Part shown: piece after piece, positions 2,840 through 54,195 of the stretch
How positions within the stretch are numbered: position 1 is the first letter of the stretch
Layout of the letters: every line of letters begins with the position of its first letter
NCBI GenBank assembly: GCA_947627855.1
Contig: CANQXR010000011.1
Span: 1,638 to 65,637, forward strand
Reading direction: 5' to 3'
From: an uncultured Clostridia bacterium
GTDB taxonomy: Bacteria; Bacillota; Clostridia; Lachnospirales; CAG-274
DNA: 64,000 bases
The notes under the pieces: generated by a model
Database searches by the model: none
Told to the model about the DNA's origin: nothing
The model's input: only the letters and a program-made list of their open reading frames with translations
Made by a program: the position numbers and the translations under genes

Positions 2840-3337
2840 ATGTTCAGAAAAATGAGAAGAGCGGCTCAGCTTCTGACGGAACAGGAAAGCATTGAAATAC
2901 TGAAAAAATGCTCCTCCGGCGTGCTTGCCGTATCGGGAGATGACGACTATCCCTATGCTGTGCCCCTTAGCTATGTGTATGAAAACGGCAGGCTTTATTT
3001 TCACTGCGCCCTCACAGGTCATAAAATCGACGGAATAAAAAGGAATGAAAAGGCTTCATTCTGCGTGGTGGACAAGGACGAGGTTATACCCGAAAAATAC
3101 ACCACACTTTTCAGAAGTGTTATAGTATTCGGCAAGGCTAAAATAATAGAGAACAAGGAAGAAAAAATAAGGATAGCCCTGATGCTTGGCGAAAAATACA
3201 ATCCCGGTCATATTGATGACGCAATGGACGAAATAAACAGGCTTTTTTCCGCCCTCTGCATAATAGAGCTGAATATAGAGCATATCACCGGCAAAGCCGC
3301 CAAAGAACTGGCTGCAATAAAAAAGGATCTGCCTTAA
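2840..3337 (+). CDS. Pyridoxamine 5'-phosphate oxidase-family FMN-binding protein (Nim/5-nitroimidazole reductase-like)
   Basis: MRRAAQLLTEQESIEILKK...GVLAV.GDDDYPYAVPLSYVY.NGRLYFHCA is the typical N-terminal pattern of Nim/PNPOx split-barrel proteins. Confidence 0.75.
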   Translation: MFRKMRRAAQLLTEQESIEILKKCSSGVLAVSGDDDYPYAVPLSYVYENGRLYFHCALTGHKIDGIKRNEKASFCVVDKDEVIPEKYTTLFRSVIVFGKAKIIENKEEKIRIALMLGEKYNPGHIDDAMDEINRLFSALCIIELNIEHITGKAAKELAAIKKDLP

Positions 3338-3356
3338 TGTGGCAGATCCCTTTTTA
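3325..3356. terminator. Bidirectional terminator hairpin between convergent genes
   Basis: ggatctgcc-N7-ggcagatcc followed by cttttta; lies between the stop at 3337 (+) and the stop at 3358 (-). Confidence 0.6.
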
Positions 3357-3357
3357 T

Positions 3358-4758
3358 TTAAATAGGATATACTCCCTTATCGACATCGGCAAGGTTTGCG
3401 TCAATTCCGTACTTCTGAGCCTGACGGAACTTGAAATATTCCTCCGCAACCTGTGGGAAAAGAACATAGCTAAGCACGTCCTCCGGCTGCTCCTTATATG
3501 CCTTTACAGCCTCCTCAGCAGCGGGAAGCTCAGGCTCAAGAAGATCTGCCGGACGGCATTCAACAACCTTTTCATCGCCTATTATTTTCTTTCTTATTTC
3601 CTTTGAAATAGGTACAGGCGTTCTGCCGTACATACCCTTTACAAGATCCTTTGTTTCCTTTGGAGTCATCTTATATCTTTCACCCATAAGCACATTGAGA
3701 ACAGCCTGTGTGCCCACGATCTGACTTGATGGGGTAACGAGAGGAGGATATCCCAGATCCGCTCTTACACGGGGGATCTCTTCAAGAACCTCTCTGTACT
3801 TGTCCTCGGCGTTTGCATTTTTAAGCTGAGAAACAAGGTTTGAAAGCATTCCGCCGGGAACCTGATAAAGAAGTGTCGCTATATCCACAGACAAAACCTT
3901 CGTACTTAACAGACCGCTCTTAAGAGCTTTCTCACGTATAGGCAGGAAGTAGTCTGCGATTTCCTTAAGAAGAACCTCGTCAAGACCGATTTCATATTTC
4001 GTGCCCTTGAACGCCGCATTCATAACCTCTGTTGCCGGCTGTGACGTACCCATTGCAAAGGGACTCATATCCGTATCTATTATATCCGCTCCTGCTTCAA
4101 CAGCCTTCATATATGTCATTGAAGCAACGCCGCTTGTATAGTGGCTGTGAACCTCAAGAGGAAGCTTTACCTCCGACTTGATAGCCTTTACGAGGTCATA
4201 AGCCGACTGCGGAAGAAGCAGACCTGCCATATCCTTTATACATATGGAATCTGCGCCTATATCTCTGTACTGCTTTGCAAGCTTTACAAAATATTCCTCC
4301 GTATGGAAGTCGCTGAGCGTAAACGAAATGGCAAGCTGAGCATGACCGCCTTCCTTTTTGCAGTATTTTACAGCCGTTTCAAGGTTTCTCGGGTCGTTGA
4401 GAGCGTCGAAAATCCTTATAATGTCAATGCCGTTTTCAATACTCTTTCTTACAAACATTTCAACAACATCGTCTGCATAATGACGATATCCCAATATATT
4501 CTGTCCCCTTAAAAGCATCTGGAGCTTTGTGTTCGGGGCTGCCTTGCGTATAAGGCGAAGTCTTTCCCATGGGTCCTCATGAAGAAATCTAAGACAGGAG
4601 TCAAATGTTGCTCCTCCCCAGACCTCCATAGCGCCGAAACCGACCTTATCCATCTTATCCACAATGGGAAGAATGTCTTTTATTGAAAGTCTTGTAGCTA
4701 TAAGTGACTGCTGACCGTCACGAAGCGTACAATCACAGATTTTAACCTTTTTACTCAT
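3358..4758 (-). CDS. Oxaloacetate decarboxylase alpha / transcarboxylase 5S-type carboxyltransferase subunit (no biotinyl domain)
   Basis: N-terminal ICDCTLRDGQQSL (HMGL-like TIM barrel of OadA/PycB/5S). 466 aa, ends without an AMKM biotin domain. Confidence 0.85.
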   Translation of the reverse strand: MSKKVKICDCTLRDGQQSLIATRLSIKDILPIVDKMDKVGFGAMEVWGGATFDSCLRFLHEDPWERLRLIRKAAPNTKLQMLLRGQNILGYRHYADDVVEMFVRKSIENGIDIIRIFDALNDPRNLETAVKYCKKEGGHAQLAISFTLSDFHTEEYFVKLAKQYRDIGADSICIKDMAGLLLPQSAYDLVKAIKSEVKLPLEVHSHYTSGVASMTYMKAVEAGADIIDTDMSPFAMGTSQPATEVMNAAFKGTKYEIGLDEVLLKEIADYFLPIREKALKSGLLSTKVLSVDIATLLYQVPGGMLSNLVSQLKNANAEDKYREVLEEIPRVRADLGYPPLVTPSSQIVGTQAVLNVLMGERYKMTPKETKDLVKGMYGRTPVPISKEIRKKIIGDEKVVECRPADLLEPELPAAEEAVKAYKEQPEDVLSYVLFPQVAEEYFKFRQAQKYGIDANLADVDKGVYPI

Positions 4759-24711: not shown

Positions 24712-24776
24712 TATGTCCTCCGGTTTAGCATTCATATTCTGCGCCCTAAAAGAATATAATTTTCATGGGTGATATC

Positions 24777-25052
24777 ATGGAAAGAATGTATAACATAAAG
24801 CGTAAGGAGGTTATAAACATAAGGGACGGAGCAAGACTGGGCTTTGTCAGCGATGTTGTGCTTGATGAAAAAAACGGTCAGGTAAAATATTTCATAGTGC
24901 CCGCCCCTACTAAGCTCTCGTGTATTTTCAGCACAAGAGAATATCGCATAAGCTGGTGCGATGTCAAAGTTTTGGGAGAAGATTATCTGCTTATAGATGC
25001 TGATCCCAAAATGTTGCTTTCGGACAGAAAAAATAACCGGCATACCGACTAG
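24777..25052 (+). CDS. YlmC/YmxH-family PRC-barrel sporulation protein
   Basis: KEVINIRDGARLGFVSDVVLDEKNGQV..FIVP pattern. Start at ATG 24777 behind GGGTGA. Confidence 0.75.
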   Translation: MERMYNIKRKEVINIRDGARLGFVSDVVLDEKNGQVKYFIVPAPTKLSCIFSTREYRISWCDVKVLGEDYLLIDADPKMLLSDRKNNRHTD

Positions 25053-25059
25053 CGTCATT

Positions 25060-25170
25060 CCGCAGCGCAGGCAGTCAAGTGGGGGCAGCTTTGCTGCCCC
25101 CACTTGACTGCCTGCGCTACGGGTCGGGGCGTTCAGAGTATACGCCAAGGGCGTATACTCTGAACGCCCC
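25060..25170. repeat. Double-palindrome module, unit 1
   Basis: HP1 ccgcagcgcaggcagtcaagtgggggcagc-ttt-gctgcccccacttgactgcctgcgctacgg (one C.A mismatch). HP2 ggggcgttcagagtatacgcc-aag-ggcgtatactctgaacgcccc. Confidence 0.95.
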
Positions 25171-25312
25171 TGAGCAGCCCTATATAACAAAAAACCAACT
25201 TAATCTATAAGCTATCTTTTTTATATATTATAAATCACTTTTGAGGTTTCAAAATCTGTTGTTGATAATCTTTTTCTTCTGAGCAAAATTCAACTTACTG
25301 ACTAACGTCATT

Positions 25313-25425
25313 CCGCAGGGCAAGCCACCGAGTGGGGGCAGCTCTGCTGCCCCCACTCGGTGGCTTGCCCTGCGGGTCGGGGGCTTTCGGAGTATACGCC
25401 AAAGGCGTATACTCCGAAAGCCCCC
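25313..25425. repeat. Double-palindrome module, unit 2
   Basis: HP1 ccgcagggcaagccaccgagtgggggcagc-tct-gctgcccccactcggtggcttgccctgcgg (perfect). HP2 gggggctttcggagtatacgcc-aaa-ggcgtatactccgaaagccccc (perfect). Confidence 0.95.
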
Positions 25426-25575
25426 GAGCAGCCATACATAATAAAAAATTTGCTATACATTATAACAGACCTTTCTTTTTATATTTTTAAAAACATTCAA
25501 GCCGTCAAAATCCGTTGCTTCGTTGCTTATGATATTTACCTGAAATCAAACTCCGCCATGCCAACTGACATTGTT

Positions 25576-25684
25576 CCGTAGGGCAAACCGTCAAGTGGGA
25601 CAGCCCTGCTGTCCCACTTGACGGTTTGTCCTACGGGTCGGGGCATTCAGAGTATACGCCAAGGGCGTATACTCTGAATGCCCC
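25576..25684. repeat. Double-palindrome module, unit 3
   Basis: HP1 ccgtagggcaaaccgtcaagtgggacagc-cct-gctgtcccacttgacggtttgtcctacgg (one G.T). HP2 ggggcattcagagtatacgcc-aag-ggcgtatactctgaatgcccc. Confidence 0.95.
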
Positions 25685-25830
25685 GGGCAGCCCCATATAA
25701 TAAAAAGCTTACCGTACATTATAGCAGATTTTTTACTTTTTTATATGTTATAAAGCACTTTTTAATTATCAAAGTCAATTGTTAATGATATTTCCACAAT
25801 ACAAAATCCAACATACCGACTAACGTCATT

Positions 25831-25953
25831 CCGTGGGGCAAGCCGCCGAGTGGGAGCAGCTTTGCTGCTCCCACTCGGCGGCTTGCCCCACGGGTCGGGG
25901 GGTGGGATTTAAGAGTACACGCCAAAGGCGTATACTCTTAAATCCCACCCCCC
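25831..25953. repeat. Double-palindrome module, unit 4
   Basis: HP1 ccgtggggcaagccgccgagtgggagcagc-ttt-gctgctcccactcggcggcttgccccacgg (perfect). HP2 ggggggtgggatttaagagtacacgcc-aaa-ggcgtatactcttaaatcccacccccc (one C.A). Confidence 0.95.
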
Positions 25954-25965
25954 GAGCAGCCCATA

Positions 25966-26002
25966 TAAAAAGGTCTGCCGTACATCACAGCAGACCTTTT
26001 TA
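25966..26002. terminator. Bidirectional terminator at the end of the array and the 3' end of ilvB
   Basis: aaaaa-ggtctgc-N11-gcagacc-ttttta. Degenerate versions of the same hairpin plus T-run follow units 1-3. Confidence 0.65.
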
Positions 26003-27679
26003 TTAATACATATCATCAAAGGTTATAAGACTGTCGCAGCCCTTTCCCGCAGGAATCATAGGCAAAACCATTTCATCATTGTCAATTATACAGTTTATAA
26101 GACAGGTTTTTCCCGATTCCATAGCTTTTCTGAGAGCCGGTTCAAATTCTTCAGGCTTTCTTACCTCAAATGCAAGAGCGCCGAAAGCCTCTGCAAGCTT
26201 GCAGAAATCCGTTCCCTTTCTGAGGGTCGTCTGCGAATAGCGTTTGCCGTAAAAAAGTGTCTGCCACTGTCTTACCATACCCAGAACCTCATTATTTATA
26301 AGTACCTCTATAACAGGCAAATCGGAAAAAACAGAGGTTGCAAGCTCGTTGCAGTTCATATAGAAACAACCATCACCGGCTATATTTATAACTGTCTTGT
26401 CAGGGTTGCCGGCCTTTGCGCCTATTGCGGCACCAAGTCCATAGCCCATTGTACCAAGTCCTCCCGAAGTTATCAGGTGACGAGGATATTTCTGTGTAAG
26501 GAACTGACACGCCCACATCTGATGCTGTCCTACCTCAGTGGCAATAATAGCCTCTCCCTTTGTTACTTCATTTATTTTTTCTATTATAAACTGAGGGTGA
26601 AGCTCATTGCCGTCAAAATATTTGAGGGGATTTTCTTTGCATATATTTATGCACTCTTCCTTCCAAGGCGTAAACTTAACAGTACCGACCTTGTTTTTAA
26701 TATGCTTGAAAATCTCTCTCAAATCTCCGACAACACTTGCGTCCGTCATTACGTTTTTGTTAATTTCCGCAGGATCTATGTCAAAATGCAGAACCTTTGC
26801 GCCCGGCACAAACTTAGATACGTCAGTTGCAATTCTGTCCGAAAATCTCGTGCCGGCAGAAATAAACACATCACATTCGTTTGCCGCTACATTTGCGCCT
26901 ACTGTGCCGTGCATACCTATCATACCCATATATCCCGACAAATCGCTGGGTATTACTCCAAGCCCCATGGAGGTGGAGCAGACAGGCATATCCGTTCTCT
27001 TGAGAAATGAAAGTATTTCATCTCTTGCTCCCGAAGCAACAGCCCCGCCGCCTACGCAAAGCAAAGGCTTTTTGGCGTTGTTTATTATTTCAGCTGCGCT
27101 CTCGATATCGCTTTCCTCTATGGAATCCGTTTTGGGCAATATAGGTTCGGGGGCTTTATAGGTATATTCCGCCTTATTCGCCGTTACGTCCTTTGTAATG
27201 TCCACAAGAACGGCGCCCTTTCTGCCCGATGCGGCAATACGAAAAGCCGACCTTATGGTGTCCGCAAGGTCATTTACGTCCTTTACAATGTAGTTATGCT
27301 TTGTAATAGGCATCGTTATGCCTGTAATATCAACCTCCTGAAAGCTGTCCTTGCCCAACAGTGGAAGCCCCACATTGCAGGTTATGGCAACAAGCGGAAT
27401 GGAGTCCAGATTTGCCGTTGCTATGCCTGTTACAAGATTTGTTGCGCCGGGACCGGACGTTGCCAGACACACTCCGACCTTACCTGTCGAACGCGCATAT
27501 CCGTCAGCAGCATGAGATGCTCCCTGCTCGTGAGAGGTAAGGTAGTGCTTTATCTCACTGCTGTGCTTGTAAAGAGCATCGTAAACATTCAGAATAGCTC
27601 CTCCCGGATAGCCAAAAACAACATCAACCCCCTGCTCCTTTAAACATTCTATAAGTATTTCGGAACCTGTTAACAGCAT
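26003..27679 (-). CDS. ilvB: Acetolactate synthase large subunit
   Basis: ThDP enzyme pattern: GYPGGAIL, GPGATNLVTG, GLGTMGYGLGAAIGAK, GDGCF.MN.QEL. Confidence 0.95.
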   Translation of the reverse strand: MLLTGSEILIECLKEQGVDVVFGYPGGAILNVYDALYKHSSEIKHYLTSHEQGASHAADGYARSTGKVGVCLATSGPGATNLVTGIATANLDSIPLVAITCNVGLPLLGKDSFQEVDITGITMPITKHNYIVKDVNDLADTIRSAFRIAASGRKGAVLVDITKDVTANKAEYTYKAPEPILPKTDSIEESDIESAAEIINNAKKPLLCVGGGAVASGARDEILSFLKRTDMPVCSTSMGLGVIPSDLSGYMGMIGMHGTVGANVAANECDVFISAGTRFSDRIATDVSKFVPGAKVLHFDIDPAEINKNVMTDASVVGDLREIFKHIKNKVGTVKFTPWKEECINICKENPLKYFDGNELHPQFIIEKINEVTKGEAIIATEVGQHQMWACQFLTQKYPRHLITSGGLGTMGYGLGAAIGAKAGNPDKTVINIAGDGCFYMNCNELATSVFSDLPVIEVLINNEVLGMVRQWQTLFYGKRYSQTTLRKGTDFCKLAEAFGALAFEVRKPEEFEPALRKAMESGKTCLINCIIDNDEMVLPMIPAGKGCDSLITFDDMY

Positions 27680-36325: not shown

Positions 36326-36486
36326 TTAAATCTTCCTTCCGTATTTAATATTTAATTCTGCGCAAGCTTTGTCTGAAGCAATGCCCCCAATCCTCCCAAA
36401 GACTCGGGGCACAGCTTCAAATAAACGGCATATCCGGCGGGAGCGGTGATAAGCCCCGCTCCGCCATTCTGCCGTCATATATAAAA

Positions 36487-45911: not shown

Positions 45912-47162
45912 ATGGATCTGAATATAACAGGCGAAAAAGCAAAGGCAGCGGCACGGATTGCCGCCACTCTGACAACAGGCAAAAAAAATGAGCTTCTGAA
46001 TGCTATGGCGGAGGCTCTTAAAGCCGAAAGGGACAAGATACTTGCTGCAAATGTCATAGATGTGGAAAAAGCGGTAAAGGCAGGCACCAAAGCATCTCTT
46101 GTTGACAGACTTTCACTTAACAAGGACAGAATAGACGCCATGGCGGAGGGGCTTTTGCAGATAGCTAAGCTGCCCGACCCAATAGGCGAAGTAATCAATA
46201 TGAACACTCTGCCCAACGGACTTATTGTGGGAGAAAAGAGAGTTCCCATGGGTGTTGTGGCTATTATATATGAAGCACGACCGAATGTAACAGCCGATGC
46301 GTTCGGGCTTTGCCTTAAATCGGGAAATGCGGTGATATTAAAAGGCGGCTCTGATGCCATAAACTCAAATATAGCCATTGTCGGCACATTCAAAAAAGCC
46401 GTAGCCGAAGCAGGAGTAAACCCGGACATAGTTCAGCTTATTGAAGATACGTCAAGGGAAACAGCCGCCGCCCTTATGAAGCTTAACAAATATATCGATG
46501 TGCTTATACCAAGAGGGGGAGCAGGGCTTATACAGTCAGTCGTACAGAATTCCACTGTCCCTGTTATAGAAACGGGAGTTGGAAACTGCCACGTATATAT
46601 AGACGATTCCGCTGACATACAAATGGGCATAGATATAATAATAAATGCCAAAACACAGCGTCCGGGAGTATGCAACGCAGCCGAAACACTTCTTGTAAGC
46701 GAAAAAGCCGCCAAAAGCTTTCTTCCCGCTGCCGTCAAAGCGCTCAGAGAAAAAAATGTTGAAATAAGAGGCTGTGAAAAAACAGCGGAAATATGCCCGG
46801 ACATGGGTATAATACCTGCCTCGGAAGACGATTATTATACAGAATTTCTCGATTATATTCTCGCTGTAAAGGTGGTTGGCGGTGTGGACGAAGCAATAGA
46901 GCATATTGCAAGATATTCTACCGGTCATTCGGAAGCCATAGTAACGGAAAGCTATACAAACGCAATGAAGTTTTTAAACGAGGTGGATTCCGCCGCCGTA
47001 TATGTAAACGCATCAACACGCTTTACAGATGGCAATGAATTCGGCTTCGGCGCCGAAATAGGAATATCCACTCAGAAGCTCCACGCAAGAGGACCTATGG
47101 GACTTAAAGCACTTACGACCACAAAATTTATAATTTACGGAAACGGTCAGATAAGAGGCTGA
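45912..47162 (+). CDS. proA: Gamma-glutamyl phosphate reductase
   Basis: Aldehyde dehydrogenase fold with the ProA pattern ([53 protein letters not shown]). Confidence 0.95.
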
Positions 47163-47177
47163 GCCGAACAGGGTTCC

Positions 47178-47306
47178 GACCCGTGGGGAGCCGACTTCCA
47201 AACCGTCAGGGACGGTTTGGAAGTCGGCTCCCCACGGGTCGGGTCGGGGCACGCACATCGGGGGCGGCGGATAAATCCGCCGCCCCCGATGTGCGTGCCC
47301 CGACCC
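47178..47306. repeat. Solitary double-palindrome module of the same family as the 25-kb array
   Basis: HP1 ccgtggggagccgacttccaaaccgtc-agg-gacggtttggaagtcggctccccacgg. The junction is GTCGGGTC. HP2 ggggcacgcacatcgggggcggcgg-ataaat-ccgccgcccccgatgtgcgtgcccc. Flanks ttCCG... and ...gggcaacatattcaaaaagc match the array flanks. Fills the convergent proA / PNPOx intergenic gap. Confidence 0.9.
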
Positions 47307-47342
47307 GGGCAACATATTCAAAAAGCTTTAAAATGCCGCAAT

Positions 47343-47735
47343 TTAAAGTTTGATTATAATAGGCTCCTCTGTGAACGAGCATATTCTCGCTTCAACATTT
47401 TTAAGATAAAACACTTCCGTGTTTCCGTCGCCGGGCGAATACATATTCTGAAGTGAAGGATATGCATCAAGCATATGCCTTTGGGCTTCAATGTTGTCGT
47501 CCAAAACAGCCTCGGCACTTATGCGTATCCACTTGCCCCCGGACATGGCTGATATTTCTATGCTTGGGTTTTTCTTCATTTGCGCCGATACGTCCTTTAC
47601 CTTGCCCGTCTGAATATAGAGCCTGTTTTCAAATATATCAATTGTTCCGAAAGGACGGACACGGGGCTTATCTCCATCAATGGTTGCCAGATAATATACC
47701 TCGCTGTTTTTCAGAAAATCATAAATATCATTCAT
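47343..47735 (-). CDS. Pyridoxamine 5'-phosphate oxidase-family protein (general stress protein 26-like)
   Basis: VYYLATIDGDKPRVRPFG ... split-barrel pattern, 130 aa. Confidence 0.7.
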   Translation of the reverse strand: MNDIYDFLKNSEVYYLATIDGDKPRVRPFGTIDIFENRLYIQTGKVKDVSAQMKKNPSIEISAMSGGKWIRISAEAVLDDNIEAQRHMLDAYPSLQNMYSPGDGNTEVFYLKNVEARICSFTEEPIIIKL

Positions 47736-53051: not shown

Positions 53052-54195
53052 ATATAATTGATATCCGGCTTTCAGCATACCCTGCTGAAAGCCCTTATCC
53101 AGCCATTATATATTAAAACATTACACCCAGATACTTTGAAACCACTTCATTCGGGCTTTGCATATTGAGGCACGTTTTTATATATGTATTAGATTTCTTT
53201 TGATAAACAGCGAGCTGTTTCCTGCCATCTTCCAAATTATACATTTTTAACTTGCTGTAAAACCTTTCCTCGTCCTGTCTGTTCTGACGTTCTACTTTGC
53301 CATTATGCCGAGGTGTTGCTATTCGTATTCTTTGATATTCGATACCAAGCTTTTCTAATGCACCCTCAAATAATGTCTTATGCTTTGCTTTTACGACCAA
53401 TAACGCATTGGTAAACTCAGGACCGTTATCCGTTTGTATTCTCAATATAGGAAACGGAGCTGCCTTTATCAAGCTTAGCAGAAACTGATATGAGCTGTAT
53501 GTGCTGTGCTCATCATACATCTGCCTGAAAGTCCACCTGCTGCATTCATCAATGGCAACATAAACATAATATTTCCGACCGTCAACAGTACACCTACTTG
53601 GTACATATTTTACGTCAGAGCGAAAAAATAATTTCTTTTAAAGCTTTATGGATATTATTTTTTCGCTTTTCTGTACCTTTTGTCCAATATATTCTGCCCT
53701 TTTATATGGCTTGGGTTTCCTTTTTGCTTTTTCCTTCTTGACAGTCTTTACCTTTAACCTACTTACAAACTTCCTGAAGCTGTCATAACTGCGAGTGTAT
53801 CCGTATCTTTCTTTCATTTCCTGATATGCCAGTATTACATCTTTCCATTAACGGAACAAGTGAAATACCAATAAATATTAATAGAAATTTCACTTGTTCC
53901 ATATATGCTTTTTCATAAGCCTTTTTATTAGCTTTATCTCTTTGTCTGTATGTGACTTTCGGAGATGATGTGGTCTGTGACTTCTGTCTTCAAGACTTTT
54001 TATGGTTCCATCATACCGTTTCATCCATTTATATACAGTCTTCCGACTTACTCTGAACCTCAAAGATGTTTCTGTTACTGTATGTCCCTCTAAATATTTA
54101 ATTATCCGTTGACGAAAGTTCTTTAATTGTGCTAACATAGTATTGCAAGATTCTCCTTTCTTGATATTTTTGTTGTTTGGACACTTCAATTATAT
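53052..54195 (-). mobile_element. Degenerate IS481-like insertion sequence (boundaries uncertain)
   Basis: Contains the broken DDE transposase gene. The only end signal seen is a 10-bp AT-rich inverted match, atataattga (53052..53061 versus the complement of 54186..54195), which is weak evidence. Confidence 0.4.
53113..54189 (-). pseudogene. IS481-family (rve/DDE) transposase split into three same-frame fragments
   Basis: Fragment 1: HTH ...VSRKTVYKWMKRY...RSHRPH. Fragment 2: WKDVILAYQEMKERYGYTRSYDSF...GQKVQ. Fragment 3: DVKYVPS...YVYVAIDECSR...IQTDNGPEF...ATPRHNGKVERQNR (D, D, E of the rve fold). In-frame stops at 53892..53890 and 53640..53638. Confidence 0.75.

Follow-up and report, generated by a model that had tools for sequence, protein, structure and literature searches.

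Long, near-perfect double hairpins at gene ends form a dispersed, lineage-specific family in uncultured rabbit-gut Clostridia

Introduction

In a 64-kb stretch of contig CANQXR010000011.1 (GenBank assembly GCA_947627855.1; hereafter the window) from an uncultured Clostridia bacterium, the spacer between ylmC and an ilvB-like gene holds four tandem units. Each of them carries two long hairpins, A and B, whose stem sequences differ between units and are still paired on both arms. What keeps the arms complementary while their sequence changes: selection on a folded RNA, a mobile element, or a process acting on the DNA itself? We compared this array with a separate fifth module at proA and with the nearest relative, the metagenome-assembled genome (MAG) 'Lapin-018__bin4' (GCA_947632615.1), which, like the window species, represents uncultured Clostridia from the rabbit gut (YlmC 91% and ProA 86% identical). 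The hairpins belong to a dispersed and lineage-specific family; this observation, and the existence of the family, are secure. With modest confidence we favour a combined explanation, in which the family consists of palindromic elements between stop codon and terminator, similar to repetitive extragenic palindromes (REPs) and bacterial interspersed mosaic elements (BIMEs), with arms kept complementary by intrastrand templating of DNA.

Results

The array between ylmC and ilvB

Direct reading and a repeat finder placed the array at positions 25031-26003 of the window, where four diverged tandem units of about 255 bp apiece were found, with the stems, loops and flanks that an earlier note on this DNA had described. 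A unit consists, in order, of a leader, hairpin A, a linker, hairpin B, a trailer (CCCC-GAGCAGCC-ATATAA followed by an A-run), a terminator-like hairpin and an AT-rich tail. Stems measure 29-30 bp in hairpin A and 21-28 bp in hairpin B, with loops of 3 nt in both. The linker reads CGG-GTC-GGGG, and the decamer CGGGTCGGGG, which comprises the end of A, the GTC and the start of B, is identical in the four units and in module 5 (at 47240). Because the units are just 66-80% alike (79-80% in the hairpin arms versus 66% in the tails), the array was missed by Tandem Repeats Finder.

The alignment of the units identifies the leaders of units 2-4 as copies of the 3′ end of ylmC, and the period of about 255 bp therefore reflects tandem segmental duplication. 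A segment of ~255 bp, made up of the ylmC 3′ end, hairpins A and B, a terminator and a spacer, was duplicated in tandem, and the four copies then diverged. Neither this origin of the period nor the dispersed, lineage-specific nature of the family was part of the earlier note. The terminator-like hairpin is intact in unit 4 only, its internal copies having decayed, and the intact copy that closes the array is also kept in the related MAG. Unit 1 indeed begins inside ylmC, as had been claimed; this overlap arises only through loss of a stop codon in the window species. YlmC homologues have 86 residues and end in ...SDRKK; the YlmC of the window carries an additional 9-residue C-terminal tail (NNRHTD...; 25020-25052), and both the tail and the overlap exist because the TAA stop of the relative was lost via a 1-nt change in an A-run.

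No promoter is conserved per array unit, and none of the A or B hairpins in the window received a terminator-like call, flanking A and T runs being present only at 25965-26003. Hairpin B of units 1, 3 and 4 (25132-25164, 25646-25678 and 25909-25936) contains a palindromic promoter-like motif, TTCAGA/TTAAGA-N16-TATACT (9 of 12 matches), for which both strands received a call in units 1 and 3; the motif is probably coincidental.

Module 5 and its orthologue

The fifth module (A and B, 47176-47307) has flanks as in the array and wholly different stem sequences. No promoter-like or terminator-like site was found around it. The 8-mer CGGGTCGG in this module pairs leftward as the base of A and rightward as the base of B. 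Its orthologue in the related MAG (locus L152, 11280-11406) allows the same hairpins to be followed between two species. In hairpin A of the proA site, 8 substitutions and 1 indel separate the species over 32 positions; the other arm mirrors all of them except at one position, which leaves the related MAG with a single mismatch. In hairpin B an 11-nt base is kept and about half of the interior has changed, including two indels, and pairing is still perfect; the orthologous proA hairpins thus hold three mirrored indels. The proA stop of the related MAG is overlapped by an AT-rich 15-bp perfect palindrome (L152 11245-11278) with the nested arrangement X-tt-X'-ctt-X-aa-X' (X = GGTTGA), which looks like a young palindrome produced by repeated fold-back copying of local sequence.

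Pairing, covariation and chance controls

We predicted 732 pairs in 26 hairpins of the family, 730 of them Watson-Crick and 2 G.T, with 17 nt unpaired outside the loops. Stems range from 17 to 47 bp across the family, and the longest perfect ones reach 44-47 bp. The loop is 3 nt in 23 of the 26 hairpins and is in all 23 closed by 5'-C...G-3'; bacterial perfect inverted repeats mostly have spacers of 4 nt (PMC13155455). The hairpins contain 54-78% GC, compared with 42-44% for the genomes, and their 5' arms are purine-rich (G 290, C 216, A 162, T 64). The array holds exactly three non-Watson-Crick pairs, as the earlier note had counted, and the wobble strands were also given correctly: the C.A pairs of A1 and B4 become G.U on the minus strand, and the G.T of A3 wobbles on the plus strand.

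Changes in the array fall on both arms. Units 1 and 2 differ at six positions of the 5' arm of hairpin A, and our count agrees that all six are mirrored. In the four-unit alignment, both partners had changed in 14 of 60 pairs (five of these 14 are transversion pairs, without a wobble intermediate) and 96% of the cells are paired; when the 3' partners were slid by 1-3 columns, pairing fell to 37-49%. Covariation statistics, a check named in the earlier note, agree with this: in none of 500 shuffles was the observed paired fraction, double-change count or covariation score reached. The array indels (+1, -1 and net +6 nt) are each exactly mirrored on the opposite arm, the last one accounting for the longer outer stem that had been noticed in hairpin B of unit 4. 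Short tandem duplications within arms are likewise mirrored on the other arm, and symmetric indels are known to preserve large bacterial inverted repeats (PMC13155455). Between the two species, about 30% of the arm positions of orthologous hairpins differ, including indels, yet the hairpins are perfectly paired (bar one mismatch), at an evolutionary distance where 4-fold degenerate sites are 44-53% identical and thus near saturation. The orthologues and mirrored indels strengthen the claim that both-arm pairing is maintained, either by selection on the hairpin or by intrastrand templating.

Such structures exceed chance expectation. The fold energy of a single module has a z-score of -19 as DNA and -18 as RNA relative to dinucleotide shuffles, no hairpin with a stem of at least 14 bp occurred in 20 shuffles of the whole window, and hairpins of at least 18 bp number 10 in the 64-kb window compared with 3 in 1.35 Mb of unrelated loci.

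Distribution in two species

The window species has three sites: the array, the proA site, and one located 1.5 kb past the left edge of the window. Nine more lie within 62 kb of GCA_947632615.1, one in the ylmC|ilvB spacer and eight elsewhere, including one within the his operon and one in a divergent spacer upstream of a promoter. Its ylmC|ilvB spacer contains six abutting perfect hairpins (stems 20-44 bp) without tails, which cannot be aligned to the window array and are followed by the same terminator. Ten of the 12 sites lie between convergent genes or after a co-directional gene; of the other two, one is in the divergent spacer and the other is an atypical GC-rich site (L218 5745-6085) with ~93-bp tandem repeats containing GGCGGTCGGGG and a long-range imperfect stem. 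Spurious open reading frames (ORFs) run across elements (140 aa in L126, 163 aa in L218), and the 163-aa ORF called across L218 5745-6085 had no match in Pfam. The modules occupy intergenic DNA just 3' of stop codons and, where an intrinsic terminator exists, lie between stop and terminator. Given this position, and the one site in an operon, they are probably transcribed as 3' untranslated region (UTR) or intercistronic RNA. Relatives with a ProA identity of 75-77% or a YlmC identity of 67% had no family hairpins and ordinary terminators only, and the ~1.35 Mb of unrelated DNA was likewise free of family sites.

These data bear on the explanation that the array is nothing special, being either an artefact of assembly or an ordinary terminator region that was recently duplicated in tandem at this locus. 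The four units are indeed tandem duplicates including a terminator, and metagenome contigs often break within hairpins. With identities of 66-80%, however, the units were not duplicated recently, assemblies made independently from several samples (ENA, Logan, NCBI) contain the same structures, the hairpins have no T-runs, and the 12 sites in two species show compensated differences, so that the further copies envisaged in the earlier note exist and a simple recent duplication of identical units does not account for them. We regard this explanation as highly improbable. Short-read metagenome contigs from several samples do end inside the hairpins (L002, L004, L005, L157, L214-L216); assemblies therefore break up at the elements, and MAGs of the lineage will under-represent them.

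Arms at non-orthologous loci have in common just a base motif of ~11-17 nt: 25 of 472 arm pairs scored above the 99th percentile of shuffles, mostly via CGGGTCGGGGCGAGG. Other loci of GCA_947632615.1 repeat the apex of the window hairpin A, GGGCAGC-NNN-GCTGCCC, and also contain a hairpin similar to B of module 5. We read these likenesses as a sign of shared ancestry. The GTC between A and B (CGG-GTC-GGGG) is conserved at four independent sites and is often itself paired, as in module 5; CGTC, 7 nt ahead of hairpin A, is confined to the array leaders. Around the his operon of GCA_947632615.1, two sites 5 kb apart (L126 1580-1620 and 6303-6325) have a common leader of 19/21 nt, GCCGACCAAACTGC..TAGC, and the hairpins behind it are completely different.

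Searches beyond these genomes returned no relatives of the family. The leader motif GCCGACCAAACTGCNNTAGC was found in GTDB genomes at the two known loci of the Lapin MAG, with no third copy there, and otherwise as chance matches, and in IMG/VR as 2 chance matches. The loose motif TTCCG..CGGGTCGGGG..CCCC matched at least 120 stretches of IMG/VR, with no hairpin among the matches listed. For CGGGTCGGGGC-N34-64-GCCCCGACCCG there were 52 matches in JGI metagenomes, nearly all in contigs of 60-78% GC and none from a low-GC relative; three are full-length hairpins, all in contigs of 63-71% GC. BLAST of the array against plasmids and phages gave no match. At gathering score, Rfam returned no match in the window or in L126, so that the known RNA family considered in the earlier note was not found; in E-value mode, the array matched generic miRNA-precursor hairpin models only, on both strands and far below gathering score. 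One contig among the JGI sequences (L176, Ga0209692_10000045, 51% GC), an unrelated chance pick, contains within 14.6 kb seven hairpins that are perfect over 16-20 bp and have loops of 1 or 5 nt; they may represent another palindromic repeat family.

The dispersal has a possible explanation in a non-autonomous mobile element, resembling REPs, REPINs (paired REPs) or MITEs (miniature inverted-repeat transposable elements), of which an unlinked hairpin-binding enzyme copies modules to new 3'-end sites. This enzyme would be a Y1 HUH transposase of the REP-associated tyrosine transposase (RAYT) or IS200-IS605 type, or another protein, recognising the hairpin base and the GTC linker. Such an element would fit the bases resembling terminal repeats, CGGGTCGGGGCGAGG...CCTCGCCCCGACCCG, that non-orthologous loci of both species share, the leader common to two loci 5 kb apart, and the tandem clusters, which are like BIMEs, as well as the location between convergent or unidirectional genes, which is like that of REPs (PMC3733652). 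It would also fit a pair of filled and empty orthologous sites between an oxaloacetate-decarboxylase alpha-type gene and a PNPOx-like gene, where the window has a bidirectional terminator only (3316-3358) and GCA_947632615.1 is longer by 345 bp of GC-rich DNA. MITEs combine conserved terminal inverted repeats with a direct target-site duplication; the family has conserved bases like terminal repeats, and we recognised no such duplication at this filled/empty site or next to modules. The hairpin-binding transposase proposed in the earlier note did not emerge: neither the window (searched for PF01797) nor the gene tables of the fetched loci showed one of the IS200/IS605-RAYT type, and no Y1, RAYT or otherwise plausible transposase was seen in the 64 kb of the window or in Pfam tables covering ~130 kb of further DNA from both species; the sole fragment present is of the IS630/IS3 type. 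Furthermore, the copies are not near-identical and give no sign of recent bursts, the common leader occurs just twice in the MAG, REP stems measure 5-13 bp (PMC3733652), and transposition alone leaves the perfect arm complementarity with mirrored indels unexplained. We consider a mobile element of this kind quite unlikely as the explanation.

Gene ends

Some hairpins extend into genes. At two gene ends the final codons of the ORF, stop included, form part of the 5' arm and recur as reverse complement in the 3' arm (L214 12567-12615 and L218 10869-10911). Three proteins have hairpin-encoded or hairpin-shifted C-termini: besides YlmC, the polysaccharide deacetylases of both species, which lie next to hairpins, have non-conserved C-terminal tails that are partly encoded by hairpin arms. 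About half of the arms hold inner cores consisting of an A-tract and a GC stem, which resemble canonical bidirectional terminators.

Other features of the window

The features of the two window loci are listed in the table. Insertion sequence (IS) remnants at 53113-54189 (a 99-aa ORF with an HTH_Tnp_IS630 domain and a 135-aa ORF with a weak rve_3 match) are the sole transposase-like sequence of the window and have no evident tie to the hairpins. Upstream of leuA, the ilvC-leuA spacer contains an imperfect hairpin, GAAGC..TGCCCCGA.TCTTTGGGAGGA.TGGGGGCATTGCTTC (window 36326-36420, minus strand; L126 18744-18840), which is conserved in both species with bulges and internal loops, unlike the perfect hairpins of the family. 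It is probably a leader or attenuator, and had no Rfam match at gathering score. A hairpin after ilvC (~36420-36476) has 11 nt in common with a his-site hairpin; it does not clearly belong to the family and is an ordinary terminator with imperfect pairing.

Table. Positions of the array, module 5 and adjacent genes in the window
Feature	Position	Strand	Remarks
ylmC/ymxH (PRC-barrel)	24765-25052	+	Pfam PF05239; last 9 codons and TAG stop within unit 1 leader
Unit 1	25031-25283	+	253 bp; leader, A1, linker, B1, trailer CCCCTGAGCAGCC, decayed terminator-like stretch, AT-rich tail
Hairpin A1	25060-25122	+	one C.A pair
Hairpin B1	25126-25170	+	
Unit 2	25284-25546	+	263 bp; leader (copy of ylmC 3' end), A2, B2, trailer, tail
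Hairpin A2	25313-25375	+	30/30 bp paired
Hairpin B2	25377-25427	+	
Unit 3	25547-25801	+	255 bp
Hairpin A3	25576-25636	+	29 bp, one G.T, mirrored 1-nt deletion
Hairpin B3	25639-25685	+	
Unit 4	25802-25964	+	A4, B4, trailer; terminator after it ends at 26003
Hairpin A4	25831-25893	+	30/30 bp paired
Hairpin B4	25895-25955	+	28 bp, mirrored net 6-nt insertion, one C.A
Intrinsic terminator	25965-26003	bidirectional	A-run, 16-17 bp imperfect stem, T-run; intact; closes array, abuts ilvB stop
ilvB-like acetolactate synthase large subunit	26003-27679	-	Pfam TPP_enzyme_N/M/C; convergent with ylmC
proA (glutamate-5-semialdehyde dehydrogenase)	45912-47162	+	stop overlaps module 5 leader
Module 5	47161-47320	+	leader GAGCCGAACAGGGTT, A5, B5, trailer GGCAACATATTC
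Hairpin A5	47176-47242	+	32 bp
Hairpin B5	47240-47307	+	33 bp, counting base CGGGTCGGGGC...GCCCCGACCCG
PNPOx-like gene	47343-47735	-	convergent with proA

Discussion

Origin of the complementarity

From the comparison of units, modules and species we conclude that the heritable, conserved feature of this family is the perfect palindrome itself, not its sequence. We take templating at DNA level as the main cause of the covariation because G.T pairs are nearly absent, multi-nucleotide indels are mirrored, and the stems are perfect far beyond what folding needs; these three properties would be hard to reach by stepwise selection on an RNA fold, and templating predicts each of them. It is further favoured by the loops, minimal at 3 nt, and by the transversion pairs among the double changes. 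In the proposed mechanism, one arm would be rewritten from the other, so that substitutions and indels land on both arms at once, either by quasi-palindrome template switching during replication or in the repair of an extruded hairpin. The same templating, seeded on ordinary bidirectional terminators and neighbouring hairpins, would lengthen the palindromes outward, and the base motif CGGGTCGGGGCGAGG would be spread by copying between hairpins or by some mobilising enzyme. As signs of such growth we take the arms that include gene ends, the nested palindrome at the proA stop, the 8-mer serving both hairpins of module 5, the terminator-like cores and the mirrored short duplications within arms. 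Template switching has been described to make and maintain perfect hairpins (10.1101/2021.04.15.439925), and quasi-palindrome mutations lengthen arm identity (PMC3820800). Of the three identities offered in the earlier note, palindromes related to replication or recombination and regenerated by templating fit best.

The alternative is that the element acts as RNA: structured 3'-UTR or intercistronic RNAs, or small RNAs (sRNAs), whose stems are held by selection on RNA folding and covary through ordinary compensatory evolution. They might serve, for example, as exonuclease blocks, as signals for RNase III or other endoribonucleases, or as factor-independent bidirectional terminators. Several observations agree with this. 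The modules lie directly after stop codons and ahead of terminators, one of them in the his operon, with the order A to B following gene direction; orthologous sites are retained in two species near 4-fold saturation, and their arms have changed less than neutral sites; purines prevail in the 5' arms, as they do in terminator hairpins; and module 5 is the sole structure between two convergent genes without canonical terminators. GC-rich intergenic stem-loops are also known to govern mRNA processing and stability in cellulolytic Clostridia (PMC10311766). On the other hand, wobble pairs are neutral in RNA, and G.U nevertheless makes up just 2 of 732 pairs; multi-nucleotide indels are exactly mirrored; stems of 30-47 perfect pairs exceed any known RNA need and would be substrates of RNase III; and the loops are triloops, not tetraloops. 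A promoter per unit is absent, the internal terminators are decayed, one site, in the spacer of divergent genes, is upstream of a promoter, and Rfam contains no matching family. Moreover, a genuine conserved regulatory hairpin of the same genomes, in the ilvC-leuA spacer, tolerates bulges and internal loops. We therefore think an RNA-level origin of the covariation unlikely. The multicopy sRNA with its own terminators that the earlier note had considered is not supported either: besides the decayed tails and the lack of a conserved promoter, module 5 has neither promoter nor terminator, and the hairpins of the relative abut without tails.

Some findings weigh against templating as a complete explanation. 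Strain-level contigs are ~100% identical, with few differences, located at contig ends, and no polymorphism in which a single event changed both arms was seen among them. The hairpin GC of 54-78% is not explained by copying AT-rich flanks alone, and thus added selection for stability or GC-biased repair is needed. Orthologous arms are 67-75% identical versus 44-53% at 4-fold sites; being more alike than these sites and the tails, they must be under some purifying constraint, which could act at RNA level. The conservation of the base motif across loci argues for dispersal by some further mechanism, and which way copying ran at gene ends is ambiguous, since the proteins concerned have non-conserved C-terminal tails. 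Templating thus leaves the high GC content, the slower-than-neutral divergence of the arms and the common base motif unexplained, and these properties point to selection for stability or function, GC-biased repair, and copying between loci.

By analogy with REPs and clostridial processing stem-loops, the modules may stabilise or delimit transcripts. The likely effect in the cell, drawn from analogy only, would be a barrier of extremely stable RNA or DNA hairpins at mRNA 3' ends and between cistrons, providing stabilisation, processing or insulation; this role may also be incidental.

Comparison with known systems

In kind, the family consists of dispersed extragenic palindromic repeats, and in behaviour it is nearest to REPs and BIMEs and to the double-hairpin elements and GC clusters of mitochondria. 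The latter, GC-rich modules consisting of palindromes or double hairpins, invade genomes that are richer in AT; restricted to particular lineages, they lie between genes, vary in number and sometimes run into gene ends. They have been described as double-hairpin elements, GC clusters or repetitive hairpin-forming elements of fungi, yeasts and sponges (PMC2800124, PMC4478555). Belonging to eukaryotic organelles and unrelated to the family in sequence, they are analogous in form only.

Like REPs and BIMEs, the modules are extragenic GC-rich palindromes 3' of genes, between convergent or co-directional ORFs, often arranged as tandem mosaics; they are probably transcribed, roles in mRNA stabilisation or termination have been proposed, and a short conserved motif stands beside the stem. 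REPs are, however, imperfect palindromes with loops of 2-20 nt; they carry a GTAG or CGTC tag and occur as hundreds of almost identical copies (PMC3733652). The family has stems of 17-47 bp, essentially perfect and with 3-nt loops, and hypervariable arms in which only the hairpin base and linker are conserved. The REP hosts named in that survey do not include Clostridia, to which the host lineage of the family belongs. The REP/BIME-like identity suggested in the earlier note consequently holds as the nearest analogy; in stem length and sequence conservation the family departs from it, and no RAYT-type gene was seen in the window or the fetched loci.

Quasi-palindrome correction and template-switch mutagenesis have also been studied in E. 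coli. To our knowledge, a set of 20-47 bp GC-rich palindromes kept in one bacterial lineage has so far not been attributed to template switching. The likeness is that arm-to-arm copying during replication yields perfect palindromes, clustered 'compensatory' changes and longer arm identity (10.1101/2021.04.15.439925, PMC5453318, PMC3820800); the difference is that this is a mutational mechanism and not an element family. With bidirectional intrinsic terminators the family shares the location between convergent genes and the composition of the arms, rich in purines on the 5' side and in pyrimidines on the 3' side; many of its hairpins contain an inner core of A-tract, GC stem and T-tract, and an intact terminator ends the array. 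The long hairpins nevertheless have no free T-run, and one pair lies inside an operon and must be read through. The processing stem-loops of cellulolytic Clostridia, also GC-rich and intergenic, set cleavage and transcript stability (PMC10311766) and are a plausible functional analogue; they are single, ordinary-sized and gene-specific, and no dispersed family or perfect palindromes have been described among them.

Other identities were rejected on anatomy. Integron attC sites and clusters of attC sites lacking integron-integrases (CALIN) are excluded by the lack of extrahelical bases and of ORFs between hairpins, and by stems that begin with CCG.../GGGG... instead of R''(RYYYAAC)...R'(GTTRRRY). 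That the array is neither coding nor a CRISPR array, as stated in the earlier note, was borne out: its 253-263 bp units are 66-80% alike and a short conserved direct repeat is absent. Intrinsic terminators as the identity of the A and B hairpins were dismissed for the absence of a T-run directly after the stem, and retron msd, toxin-antitoxin repeats and coding explanations were likewise ruled out.

Implications

Perfect palindromes of 30-47 bp are normally removed by SbcCD-type nucleases. As a tentative extension of the templating mechanism, there may be an active 'palindrome drive', a replication or repair process that possibly operates via the loss or gain of a nuclease or exonuclease, or via a hairpin-specific enzyme. 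Such a drive would turn terminators and gene ends into perfect palindromes, lengthen these beyond 40 bp, enrich them in GC, keep re-templating one arm from the other and sometimes copy hairpin bases between loci; we consider its existence possible, though doubtful.

If complementarity is kept by DNA templating, the reasoning that covariation implies a selected RNA structure gives false positives for elements of this kind, since they score as perfect covariation and an RNA function is not needed. The family would then serve as a natural bacterial system for studying how template switching and hairpin repair create, extend and preserve long palindromes, and would also allow study of how palindromes of 30-47 bp are tolerated and how gene ends are reshaped. 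Should the 'palindrome drive' prove true, these hairpins would represent a class of self-maintaining DNA elements whose heritable unit is a structure and not a sequence.

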